A stretch of DNA of 64,000 nucleotides from Candidatus Limnocylindrales bacterium (GCA_038214255.1 JBBQRZ010000007.1:36730-100729); one strand, 5' to 3'. Shown: positions 47,174 through 54,497, numbered from the stretch's first letter. The notes: generated from the letters alone by a model not told the origin. Made by a program: numbers and translations.

Positions 47174-47206
47174 GGCACCCCTTGTCCGCTAGATTCGGCT
47201 TCTCGC

Positions 47207-47243
47207 GGTTCCATCATACGGTACGGTTCCACGATATGGAACC
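47207..47243. promoter_or_regulatory. Three GGTTCCA half-sites: one direct copy (47207-47213) plus a perfect palindrome GGTTCCA-cgata-TGGAACC (47225-47243); candidate IclR operator
   Basis: Read directly, in the 106-bp divergent spacer between the IclR gene and the corrinoid protein gene. Confidence 0.5.
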
Positions 47244-47279
47244 TCCCGCGACGACTTCTCCTCTGCGGAGCCAACGGAC

Positions 47280-47987
47280 ATGACCGACGACTACCAGGAC
47301 ATCGACCTCGCCAGCCTGTCCGACGACGAGCTCGTCGAGCAGATGCACAACGACCTCTACGACGGGATGAGGGAGGAGATCGTCCAGGGGACGAACATCC
47401 TCCTCCAGCGTGGGTTTACCGCGACCAAGGTCCTCGACGACGCGCTCGTGGCCGGCATGAAGATCGTCGGCATCGACTTCCGCGACGGCATCCTGTTCGT
47501 GCCTGAGGTCCTGCTCGCCGCCAACGCGATGAAGGCCGGCATGGAGATCCTCCGTCCGCTGCTGGCGGAGACGGGCGCGGAGCCGGTCGGCAAGGTCGTG
47601 ATCGGCACGGTCAAGGGCGACATCCACGACATCGGCAAGAACCTCGTCGGGATGATGCTCGAAGGCGCCGGCTTCGAGGTCGTCGACCTCGGCATCAACA
47701 CGGACGCCGAGAAGTTCATCAACGCGCTGACCGAGCACAAGCCGGACATCCTCGGCATGTCGGCGCTGCTGACGACGACGATGCCGTACATGAAGGTCGT
47801 GATCCAGACGCTCAAGGATCGCGGCCTGCGCGACGACTACATCGTCCTCGTCGGGGGCGCGCCGCTCAACGAGGAGTTCGGCATGGCCGTGGGCGCCGAC
47901 GCCTACTGTCGCGACGCGGGCGTGGCCGCGGAGACGGCTCGCCGCCTCATCGACGAGCGACGGGCCCGTGCCAGCGTCCCGGCCTGA
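47280..47987 (+). CDS. Cobalamin-binding corrinoid protein of a methyltransferase system (MtgC/MtbC-like)
   Basis: B12-binding cap helix region plus a Rossmann domain with the DxHxxG motif (GTVKGDIHDIGKN). SALLTTT and GGAPLN blocks. Confidence 0.9.
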   Translation: MTDDYQDIDLASLSDDELVEQMHNDLYDGMREEIVQGTNILLQRGFTATKVLDDALVAGMKIVGIDFRDGILFVPEVLLAANAMKAGMEILRPLLAETGAEPVGKVVIGTVKGDIHDIGKNLVGMMLEGAGFEVVDLGINTDAEKFINALTEHKPDILGMSALLTTTMPYMKVVIQTLKDRGLRDDYIVLVGGAPLNEEFGMAVGADAYCRDAGVAAETARRLIDERRARASVPA

Positions 47988-52075: not shown

Positions 52076-53613
52076 CCGAGACGTTGCCGACCCGCCGCAG
52101 CGGCGGTCGCGAAGGTCGGCGAGCCGTGCGCCTGAGCCACCAGGTCGAGCGGATGCCGTTCCTGACCCGGACGCTCGCCCCGTTCGAGGTCCTCAGCGAC
52201 GAGGGCCTCTCGATCCTCGAGCACAACGCCGACACGATCCTCGAAGAGGTCGGCGTCGAGTTCCGCGGCGACCCGGACGCCCTGCGGCTCCTGCGCGAGG
52301 GCGGCGCCGACGTCGAAGGTGAGCGGGTCCGATTCCCGCGCGGCATGTGCCGCCAGGTCGTCCAGGCAACCGCCCCGCGCCAGTTCACCCAATACGCACG
52401 GAACGAGGCGAACAACGTCGAGATCGGCGGGATGCACACGGTCTTTGCGCCCAACTACGGCTCGCCGTTCGTGCGCGATCTCGACCGCGGCCGGCGCTAC
52501 GGCACGATCGAGGACTTCCGCAACTTCGTGAAGCTCGCCTACATGAGCCCGCACCTCCACCACAGCGGCGGGACGGTGTGCGAACCGGTCGACGTGGCGG
52601 TCAACAAGCGCCACCTCGACATGGTCTATTCGCACATCCGCTACAGCGACAAGCCGTTCATGGGCTCGGTCACGGCACCCGAGCGGGCGCGCGATACGGT
52701 CGAGATGGCGCGCCTCACCTTCGGCGCGGACTACCTCGAGGATCACGCCGTGATCCTCTCCCTGATCACCGCCAACTCGCCACTCGTCTGGGACTCGACG
52801 ATGCTCGGCGCGGCGCGCGCCTACGCCGAGGCCAACCAGGCCACGCTGCTCACGCCGTTCATCCTGGCCGGAGCGATGGCCCCGGTCACCGCGGCCGCAG
52901 TCGCCGCCCAGACCCTCGCCGAGTCGCTCGCCGGGATGACGTTCGTGCAGCTCGTCCGGCCGGGCGCCCCGGTCGTGCTCGGATCGTTCGCCTCCTCGAT
53001 GTCGATGCAGTCGGGCGCGCCGACGTTCGGCACCCCGGAGCCCGCGCTCGTGCTCTACACGATGGCCGCGCTCGCCCGCCGGCTCGGCGTGCCGTTCCGG
53101 TCCGGTGGCTCGCTGTGCGCCTCCAAGGTGGCCGACGCACAAGCCGCCTATGAGAGCGCCGCGACCCTCCAGCCGACCGTTCTCGGCGGGGTGAACTTCG
53201 TGCTCCACGCGGCCGGCTGGCTCGAAGGCGGCCTCGCGGTCGGCTACGAGAAGTTCATCCTCGATGCCGACCAGTGCGGGATGATGGCCGTGTTCGTGAA
53301 GGGCGTCGACATGTCCGAGAACGGCCAGGCGCTCGACGCGATCCGGTCGAACGGCCCCGGCCAGCATTTCCTCGGCACGGCGCACACGTTCGCCAACTTC
53401 GAAACCGCCTTCTACCGCTCCGAGGTCGCCGACAACAACAGCTTCGAGCAGTGGCAGGAGGACGGCTCGCTCGACGCCGCCCAGCGCGCGAATGCGATCT
53501 GGAAGCGGATGCTGGCCGAGTACGAAGCACCGCCGCTCGAGCCCGCGATCGACGAGGCGCTCCTCGAGTTCATGGTCCGGCGCAAAGCGTCGATGCCGGA
53601 CTCCGAGGTCTAG
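52072..53613 (+). CDS. MttB-superfamily (trimethylamine methyltransferase family) enzyme, non-pyrrolysine type; likely quaternary-amine:corrinoid methyltransferase
   Basis: 513 aa uninterrupted (no in-frame TAG). LSDEGLSILEHNADTILEEVGVEF, ITANSPLVWD, FILAGAMAPVT, GAPTFGTPE and HFLGTAHT blocks are MttB-like. ATGA overlap with the activase gene. Confidence 0.85.
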   Translation: MTETLPTRRSGGREGRRAVRLSHQVERMPFLTRTLAPFEVLSDEGLSILEHNADTILEEVGVEFRGDPDALRLLREGGADVEGERVRFPRGMCRQVVQATAPRQFTQYARNEANNVEIGGMHTVFAPNYGSPFVRDLDRGRRYGTIEDFRNFVKLAYMSPHLHHSGGTVCEPVDVAVNKRHLDMVYSHIRYSDKPFMGSVTAPERARDTVEMARLTFGADYLEDHAVILSLITANSPLVWDSTMLGAARAYAEANQATLLTPFILAGAMAPVTAAAVAAQTLAESLAGMTFVQLVRPGAPVVLGSFASSMSMQSGAPTFGTPEPALVLYTMAALARRLGVPFRSGGSLCASKVADAQAAYESAATLQPTVLGGVNFVLHAAGWLEGGLAVGYEKFILDADQCGMMAVFVKGVDMSENGQALDAIRSNGPGQHFLGTAHTFANFETAFYRSEVADNNSFEQWQEDGSLDAAQRANAIWKRMLAEYEAPPLEPAIDEALLEFMVRRKASMPDSEV

Positions 53614-53618
53614 GTCCC

Positions 53619-54497
53619 GTGCTCTTTCGACGCCGCCGGTCGCTCTCGGCCGCGCAGTCGGCAGCCCTGGCGGGGGTGCTCCAGGCGCCGACGTTCGAGT
53701 TGATCCCGCTCAAGAACTCGCTCGATCAGGCCGCGCACCTGCCGGCCGGGGCGACGGTGTCGGTGACGGCCTCGCCGGCCAAGGGAATCGAGGCGACGGT
53801 CGCGCTGTGCGAGCAGCTCCAGGCCCTCGGCTTCCGCGCCGTCCCGCACGTCTCGGCGCGGATGATCCGGGACCGCGCCCACCTCGAGGACCTGATCGCG
53901 TGGCTCGAAGGCGCCGGGGTCGATCGGGCGTTCGTGGTCGGCGGTGACGCCAAGGAGCCGGGAGCCTACCCGGACGGCCTGGCATTGCTGCGCGAGATGG
54001 CCGAGATCGGTCATCCGCTCAGCGAGATCGGGATCCCCGGCTACCCGCAGGGCCATGCCTTCATCGCCGACGGCCCGCTCCTCGAGGCGCTGCGCGCCAA
54101 GGCCGCGTTCGCAAGCTACATGACGACCCAGCTCTGCTTCGACCCCACCGCGATCGCTCGCTGGCTTGCCGAGCGGCGGGCCGAGGGGATCATGCTGCCG
54201 GTGCACGTCGGCGTCCCCGGGGTGGCCGAGCCACAGAAGCTGCTCGCGATCGCCGCCCGCATCGGCGTCGCCGACACCCACCGGTTCCTCGTCAAGAACG
54301 TCCGATTCGTGACCCGCCTCGTGCGGTCCGGCGGCTTCTACCGGCCCGACGGCCTGCTCGAGGGCCTCGCGCCGTACGCCGCCGACCCGGCCGCCGCGAT
54401 CGTCAGCCTGCACCTCTACACGTTCAACGCGGTCGATGCGACCGAGGCCTGGCGGCGCGACTTCCTCTCGAAGCTGCCGGTGGCCGCGACAACCTGA
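53619..54497 (+). CDS. metF: Methylenetetrahydrofolate reductase (MetF-like)
   Basis: FELIPLKN, VSVTASP, VPHVSAR, FVVGGD, QLCFD and LHLYTFN blocks. GTG at 53619, 6 nt after the MttB stop. Confidence 0.8.
   Translation: MLFRRRRSLSAAQSAALAGVLQAPTFELIPLKNSLDQAAHLPAGATVSVTASPAKGIEATVALCEQLQALGFRAVPHVSARMIRDRAHLEDLIAWLEGAGVDRAFVVGGDAKEPGAYPDGLALLREMAEIGHPLSEIGIPGYPQGHAFIADGPLLEALRAKAAFASYMTTQLCFDPTAIARWLAERRAEGIMLPVHVGVPGVAEPQKLLAIAARIGVADTHRFLVKNVRFVTRLVRSGGFYRPDGLLEGLAPYAADPAAAIVSLHLYTFNAVDATEAWRRDFLSKLPVAATT

Follow-up and report, generated by a model that had tools for sequence, protein, structure and literature searches.

The question raised by the locus described here is which methylated compound is demethylated by a compact set of corrinoid methyltransferase genes in a bacterium whose neighbouring genes are largely aerobic in character. 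The seven genes lie on the plus strand at 47280-54497 of a 64,000-nucleotide stretch from Candidatus Limnocylindrales bacterium (GCA_038214255.1 JBBQRZ010000007.1:36730-100729); the whole stretch, with a G+C content of about 70%, is referred to as the window, and all positions follow its numbering. Open reading frames (ORFs) were listed and translated, and their products were scanned against Pfam and NCBIfam profiles. With a probability of about 0.75, the locus is an IclR-controlled operon for the cobalamin-dependent conversion of glycine betaine to dimethylglycine in aerobic, Limnocylindrales-type Chloroflexota. The observations made here are of gene content, family membership, residue conservation, synteny and operator conservation; pathway function has been shown in Ruegeria pomeroyi, and MtgB chemistry in Desulfitobacterium hafniense. 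We infer the substrate, the direction of the terminal MTHFR-like enzyme, the roles of the DUF1638 and PF13769 proteins, and repression by IclR.

An initial annotation of this DNA stated that MttB systems lacking pyrrolysine had been characterised in strict anaerobes, a statement now outdated. Mausz et al. (PNAS 2025, PMC12478193) showed by genetics and proteomics that aerobic R. pomeroyi demethylates glycine betaine via MtgB (PF06253), MtgC, MtgD, RamA, DUF1638 and MetF2, with glycine betaine inducing all six; elsewhere among bacteria the corresponding genes cluster or form operons beside those for the later demethylation steps. The aerobic system has an MtgC from a clade apart from that of anaerobes, and with MtgE this protein also serves methionine synthesis. 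The suggestion that the corrinoid route operates in an aerobic-type organism is supported by the aerobic context of the window, but this angle has already been published (PMC12478193). The window holds the complete aerobic component set (MtgB, MtgC, MtgD, a RamA-like protein, DUF1638 and a MetF paralogue) in one cassette, and shares with R. pomeroyi DSS-3 an aerobic host and associated dimethylglycine and sarcosine demethylation genes. Unlike in DSS-3, where the genes are scattered, they form a single IclR-regulated seven-gene operon in a member of the Chloroflexota, and no MtgE is seen near the cassette among the window ORFs scanned. A further difference is that the present unit includes a PF13769 gene, whereas the family goes without mention in the main text, and without a match in the supplementary files, of PMC12478193 as far as these were accessible. 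The locus is therefore a new example of an established aerobic system, not a new discovery, and what is new is modest: the PF13769 neighbour, the four cysteines of DUF1638, an altered substrate pocket and an MTHFR that is only loosely of type 4.

A seven-gene cassette beside a divergent iclR gene

The ORF listing recovered the seven closely packed, co-directional genes that the initial annotation had described. Neighbouring genes share an ATGA at 49006 and at 52072, the mtgC-like and DUF1638 genes overlap by 20 nt, and the other three junctions are gaps of 4, 16 and 5 nt; one minus-strand gene, iclR, precedes the seven. Profile searches likewise upheld the families assigned to the seven products. 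The first gene (47280-47987) encodes an MtgC-like corrinoid protein with B12-binding_2 (PF02607) and B12-binding (PF02310) domains, in which the DxHxxG motif reads GDIHDIGKN. It is followed by genes for a DUF1638 protein (47968-48651; PF07796, E 9e-29), a small protein of 117 amino acids (48656-49009), an MtgD-like pterin-binding methyl-corrinoid:tetrahydrofolate methyltransferase (49006-49983; PF00809), and a RamA/RACo-type ATP-dependent reductive activase of the corrinoid protein (50000-52075; Fer2, RACo_linker, Raco_middle and RACo_C_ter). The last two genes encode a non-pyrrolysine, MtgB-like methyltransferase of the MttB superfamily (52072-53613) and a MetF2-like protein of divergent MTHFR fold (53619-54497). 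The small protein, noted earlier as conserved, is indeed so, and can now be placed in a named family, PF13769 ('Virulence_fact', E 8e-20).

Gene order was compared across loci anchored on the MttB protein, with one genome per species, the window proteins mapped on to each, and only loci with enough flanking sequence counted. The full seven-gene order is kept at 15 of 17 loci from Chloroflexota and at 16 of 30 from Actinomycetota (Gaiellales, Acidimicrobiia, Thermoleophilia and others). It occurs at none of the eight loci from Pseudomonadota, in which the MttB gene tends to stand alone near sox or dmgo genes. A divergent iclR gene adjoins mtgC at all 17 Chloroflexota loci and at 23 of the 30 from Actinomycetota.

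The divergent regulator gene reported upstream of the cassette is present on the minus strand at 46424-47173, and its product carries the HTH_IclR and IclR_C domains expected of the family, with a palindromic putative operator beside the divergent target. A sigma-70-like promoter, TGGACA-17-TAGATT, lies on the plus strand at 47167-47195 and is the sole promoter-like match in 46300-55700. The 'triple GGTTCCA' site previously noted here is real (GGTTCCA at 47207 and 47225, TGGAACC at 47237), although two 17-bp inverted repeats lying in tandem describe it better. These repeats, GTTCCATCATACGGTAC at 47208-47224 and GTTCCACGATATGGAAC at 47226-47242, each occur once in the window and together make up a putative IclR operator (47208-47242). 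Both palindromes are found in the same place in about 25 iclR-mtgC intergenic regions of Chloroflexota and Actinomycetota with differing flanking sequence, and a TAGATT / TACGCT element is likewise kept in the related intergenic regions (about 25 loci). Because the seven-gene order and the operator are both kept in dozens of independent genomes, neither can be put down to chance.

The predicted promoter, just upstream of the palindromes, has the layout of a repressor-controlled promoter, and the IclR protein is probably a repressor of the cassette. It would occupy both palindromes, immediately past the -10 element, and leave them when an effector is present. No intrinsic terminator was found in 46300-55700, so the end of the operon is set by gene arrangement alone. 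No cobalamin riboswitch, tetrahydrofolate (THF) riboswitch or other RNA family turned up when the whole window was scanned against Rfam.

The MttB-family protein and its probable substrate

The product of 52072-53613 (513 amino acids) matches PF06253 over its full length, with 756 bits and residues 9-509 aligned to profile positions 1-500, and its proposed membership of the MttB family is thereby secured. Close homologues are annotated 'trimethylamine--corrinoid protein Co-methyltransferase', and a survey of metagenome-assembled genomes (MAGs) lists mttB-family genes in Limnocylindria under 'anaerobic methylotrophy', labels that would have the cassette act as a methyltransferase system for trimethylamine or mark an anaerobic methylotroph. 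The protein itself makes such a role highly improbable. Its ORF has no internal stop and no in-frame UAG, and Leu348 aligns with the pyrrolysine, Pyl334, of M. barkeri MttB ('X' in 7XCL), a position at which leucine stands in 83 of 84 orthologues; the non-pyrrolysine status given in the initial annotation is in this way borne out by direct comparison of residues. The score against the NCBIfam trimethylamine equivalog model is 252 bits where the cutoff is 525, and that against the solved pyrrolysine-containing MttB is only 103 bits. Arg343, the equivalent of a carboxylate-binding residue, stands where MttB has a tyrosine, and the neighbouring genes are of sarcosine oxidase type.

The closest homologues, at 85-93% identity, come from MAGs of Candidatus Limnocylindrales or 'uncultured Chloroflexia'. 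The closest solved relative is a structural-genomics entry, PDB 4YYC ('putative trimethylamine methyltransferase'; 65% identity, 729 bits), which has the same Tyr/Arg/His/Trp/Gly active-site signature, and for which a literature search gave no published function. We take 4YYC to be from Sinorhizobium meliloti. A further comparison is with D. hafniense MtgB (DSY3156; 2QNE / 9YCE; Ticak 2014; Picking et al., JBC 2026, PMC13080624), to which the window protein is 44% identical over its full length (414 bits), and with which it shares the TIM-barrel MttB fold family and a leucine at the pyrrolysine position. Glycine betaine is bound in MtgB by Y97, R312, H348 and F356, as established by mutagenesis and a ligand-bound structure, and the F356L substitution raises the Km several hundred-fold (PMC13080624). 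Three of these four residues are kept in the window protein, where Y129, R343 and H379 are the equivalents of Tyr97, Arg312 and His348, whereas F356 aligns with Gly387, four residues downstream of Trp383. All five residues (Y129, R343, H379, Trp383 and Gly387) are invariant in the 84 orthologous loci. MtgB differs in two other respects: the window protein belongs to an aerobe, and its THF-delivering partner methyltransferase is encoded within the same operon.

Read from this alignment, the carboxylate clamp appears intact and one aromatic wall of the pocket seems to be built differently. An intact clamp fits a betaine substrate, and leaves some doubt as to which betaine. It is possible that the same machinery acts on another carboxylated quaternary amine (proline betaine, carnitine or gamma-butyrobetaine), or on another methylated compound, and that the glycine betaine genes nearby are coincidental or belong to a converging pathway. 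That all 84 orthologues have Gly387 in place of F356, together with an invariant Trp383, speaks for this, as do the observations that the arginine and histidine are common to MtcB, MtpB, MtyB and MthB while the aromatic pair varies (PMC13080624), and that R. pomeroyi and its relatives have up to seven MttB paralogues, presumed to act on different substrates (PMC12478193). Set against these points, an OpuAC-type transporter is encoded in the window, the enzymes that would follow are precisely the dimethylglycine and sarcosine ones, sox or dmgo genes adjoin the cassette in many relatives, unrelated genomes among them, and no carnitine- or proline-specific genes were seen. Another substrate is accordingly unlikely, and glycine betaine, favoured by genomic context, is the probable one. 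The case for glycine betaine rests on the 44% identity to a proven MtgB, on the three binding residues kept, and on the OpuAC, aldehyde dehydrogenase, dimethylglycine oxidase-like and soxBDA genes of the window.

The association with betaine uptake and with dimethylglycine and sarcosine demethylation is found in 27386-42444, where unrelated genes are interspersed among some of the catabolic ones. On the minus strand, Pfam matches identify a dimethylglycine oxidase-like protein of 819 amino acids with DAO, FAO_M and GCV_T domains (27386-29845), an OpuAC substrate-binding protein (29929-31149), an ABC permease (31001-32929), an ABC ATPase (32926 to about 34010) and an aldehyde dehydrogenase (34019-35554). 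Pfam matches also identify soxB (38190-39581) and soxA (39820-42444), between which soxD (39581-39823) was located by tblastn and frame analysis. Because a naive longest-ORF call (39595-42444) absorbs soxD into soxA, a fused or missing soxD was considered; it was rejected, as soxD is a separate ORF that overlaps the end of soxB and shares an ATGA overlap with soxA. No SoxG (gamma subunit) was detected by Pfam downstream of soxA. Oxidase-type enzymes for the downstream steps, as the initial annotation had it, are thus encoded in the window, and dimethylglycine formed by the cassette would pass to the dimethylglycine oxidase-like enzyme and SoxBDA.

The proposed corrinoid relay and the MTHFR-like protein

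In the proposed pathway, the MtgB-like enzyme would bind betaine with Arg343 and His379 holding the carboxylate and Tyr129, probably with Trp383, holding the trimethylammonium group, and would pass a single methyl group to the Co(I) that the MtgC-like protein carries. The MtgD-like pterin-binding enzyme would hand this methyl group to THF, and the MTHFR-like flavoenzyme would oxidise 5-methyl-THF to 5,10-methylene-THF for one-carbon oxidation or assimilation. Formation of Co(II), expected often in air, would be reversed by the 2Fe-2S/ASKHA RamA-type activase, which would restore Co(I) with ATP.

The MtgD-like enzyme matches NCBIfam PRK07535 at 345 bits (cutoff 259), and the activase matches PF00111, PF17650, PF17651 and PF14574, all over their cutoffs, which amounts to the RACo/RamA domain set; it also has an AcsV-like NCBIfam match. 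The cassette contains neither an electron donor for the activase nor an electron acceptor for the MTHFR-like protein. The logic of substrate to methyl-THF to methylene-THF in the initial annotation is supported; its description of the cassette as a self-contained demethylation unit is an inference. In a 91%-identical relative (L001, ENA contig_61041, 7500-12100), the activase gene is fragmented, and the part for the C-terminus runs in frame into the MttB gene to give a product of 691 amino acids; this is most likely an assembly frameshift error rather than biology.

A similar core of B12-binding protein, pterin-binding protein, Fer2 plus DUF4445 (RACo) activase and DUF1638 forms the split methionine synthase of another aerobe, Phaeobacter inhibens (PMC5764234). 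One could thus argue that MtgC, MtgD, RamA and DUF1638 of the window serve mainly as a split cobalamin-dependent methionine synthase, with MtgB feeding methionine synthesis. However, the P. inhibens system ends in a homocysteine methyltransferase module, whereas the window cassette has a donor enzyme of the MttB family and an MTHFR-like protein, the latter a homologue of a methyl-THF-oxidising MTHFR. The homocysteine-binding module (PF02574, MtgE) was found neither in the cassette nor among the window ORFs scanned, and a dedicated IclR regulator and catabolic gene surroundings also argue against this function. Methionine synthesis as the main function is quite improbable, and a dual role in methionine synthesis and catabolism is possible.

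The initial annotation had the cassette ending in MTHFR, which is right as to the fold and too simple as to the protein. The match to PF02219 is barely over the cutoff (24.9 against 24 bits), and among solved structures the one strong match is to S6MTHFR of Sphingobium lignivorans SYK-6 (PDB 7XG9, 135 bits), with which this divergent protein shares a pairing with a THF-dependent demethylase. The type 4 class of MTHFR was founded on S6MTHFR, an enzyme that oxidises methyl-THF without using NADH (Yu et al., Commun Biol 2025, PMC11868366). Its signature comprises Leu48-Pro49 in loop beta2-alpha3, held by Arg78, Phe215 and Cys219 in helix alpha8, and Tyr267-Pro268-Phe269-Gly-Gly-Leu in loop beta8-alpha11 (PMC11868366). 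When the alignment to 7XG9 was read against these residues, the window protein was found to have Ser52-Pro53, Met82, Ile211, Ile215 and Tyr-Thr-Phe-Asn-Ala-Val at the corresponding positions, so that Pro49, Tyr267 and Phe269 are kept and the full type 4 signature, unlike in S6MTHFR, is lacking. The threonine at the Pro268 position is the residue of ordinary MTHFRs (PMC11868366). Strict type 4 membership was consequently rejected, and oxidation of 5-methyl-THF to 5,10-methylene-THF is suggested instead by pathway logic and by analogy with Ruegeria MetF2.

Among related cassettes, a DUF5981 (MetV-like) and canonical MTHFR pair between the PF13769 gene and mtgD replaces the terminal divergent MTHFR at L130 (6304-7802), and the same swap is seen in L135, L137, L149, L150, L158, L159 and L161. 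The module for methyl-THF oxidation thus appears to be interchangeable among these cassettes.

Several findings weigh against assigning the operon to glycine betaine demethylation. The best NCBIfam model for the corrinoid protein is indeed the glycine-betaine-specific corrinoid protein MtgC_2, but its 208 bits fall below the cutoff of 370, and the MttB-family protein likewise falls under the curated NCBIfam cutoff for the named MttB equivalog. Because F356 is replaced by glycine throughout the clade, the pocket differs from that of MtgB, and other carboxylated quaternary amines are possible substrates. Five type 4 residues are replaced in the last protein (Leu48 by Ser, Arg78 by Met, Phe215 by Ile, Cys219 by Ile and Pro268 by Thr), which leaves uncertain both the direction of the reaction and whether NAD(P)H takes part. 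The 819-amino-acid DAO and GCV_T enzyme could be a dehydrogenase coupled to electron-transfer flavoprotein and not an O2-using oxidase. Finally, the host organism is known only from metagenome assemblies.

DUF1638, PF13769 and the wider setting

The initial annotation called the roles of DUF1638 and the small protein unknown. For DUF1638 this no longer holds entirely, since Price et al. (PLoS Genet 2018, PMC5764234) found that a DUF1638 protein and a RamA-like protein are both required for B12-dependent methionine synthesis in P. inhibens. Four cysteines and one histidine are invariant across 51 orthologues of DUF1638, and in an AlphaFold2 (AF2) model with a Rossmann-like alpha/beta fold (pLDDT 83.6) they lie at or just past the strand ends of the sheet. 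The pattern in this model suggests a metal or Fe-S site, and the protein is probably a metal-binding accessory factor for corrinoid (re)activation.

The PF13769 protein has the conserved motifs WRDIPAQ and RFQxAID, and AF2 models it with good confidence (pLDDT 83.5). Searching the PDB by sequence yielded no usable match to either protein, and Foldseek comparison of the two AF2 models with the PDB gave no match at E <= 0.001, with TM-scores of at most 0.37 to generic alpha/beta folds; as no match was significant, no function can be transferred by structure. A literature search on PF13769 gave nothing relevant. PF13769 is present in 16 of 17 Chloroflexota and 27 of 30 Actinomycetota cassettes. 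At metagenome loci anchored on PF13769 itself, DUF1638 or mtgC lies immediately upstream in 49 of the 54 that could be tested, and some corrinoid-system gene is present in 66 of 71. PF13769 genes with no detectable corrinoid-system neighbour occur at L118, L121, L123, L152, L164 and L145 (6001-6291), the last being flanked by genes for a TPR protein and an ABC-F ATPase. Since such genes are few, the association is strong and not absolute: PF13769 is a near-obligate, previously unremarked neighbour of mtgC-DUF1638.

Both proteins would help at the corrinoid protein, and their standing as its dedicated partners is a testable hypothesis, with no mechanism established. A more specific and rather doubtful proposal is that mtgC, DUF1638 and PF13769 form an unrecognised three-protein unit, in which DUF1638 and PF13769 load, shield or re-reduce the cobalamin of cells exposed to oxygen. 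If this were true, PF13769 would be a required part of the corrinoid methyltransferase systems of aerobes, split MetH included, and not a 'virulence factor'; DUF1638 would be a Rossmann-like protein whose four cysteines form a metal or Fe-S centre, and PF13769 a new small alpha/beta fold.

Other genes of the window were noted as well. A signalling protein of about 1320 amino acids with four GAF domains, GGDEF and EAL (23287-27249, minus strand) adjoins the dimethylglycine oxidase-like gene. Between the aldehyde dehydrogenase and sox genes lies a gene for an F420H2-dependent quinone reductase family protein (PF04075; 35476-36072, plus strand), a hint that this lineage of Chloroflexota uses F420. 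Positions 7057-8691 (plus strand) encode a radical SAM protein resembling lysine 2,3-aminomutase (Radical_SAM and LAM_C); this family is usually oxygen-sensitive, and the region of the window is otherwise aerobic in character. Downstream of the cassette, 59239-61875 (plus strand) encodes an Rrf2-family regulator followed by a class-V aminotransferase or cysteine desulfurase-like protein of 610 amino acids with an N-terminal extension of about 220, and L001 has a similar Rrf2 and Aminotran_5 pair downstream of its own cassette.

As a compact operon, the locus offers a clean set of parts for reconstitution, consisting of a regulator, an operator, seven genes and a Y/R/H/W/G active-site signature, with the PF13769 and DUF1638 proteins as the obvious unknowns of the system. 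On the reading preferred here, aerobic B12-dependent demethylation of glycine betaine would extend from marine Proteobacteria to the Limnocylindria of the Chloroflexota and, in a closely related form, to many uncultured Actinomycetota (Gaiellales, Acidimicrobiia), groups that are plentiful in soils and fresh waters; of the mtgC reads from the ocean, about 5% have been assigned to Actinomycetota (PMC12478193). These organisms are likely cobalamin consumers, and 'mttB' matches in their genomes should not be taken as a sign of trimethylamine use or of anaerobic methylotrophy.

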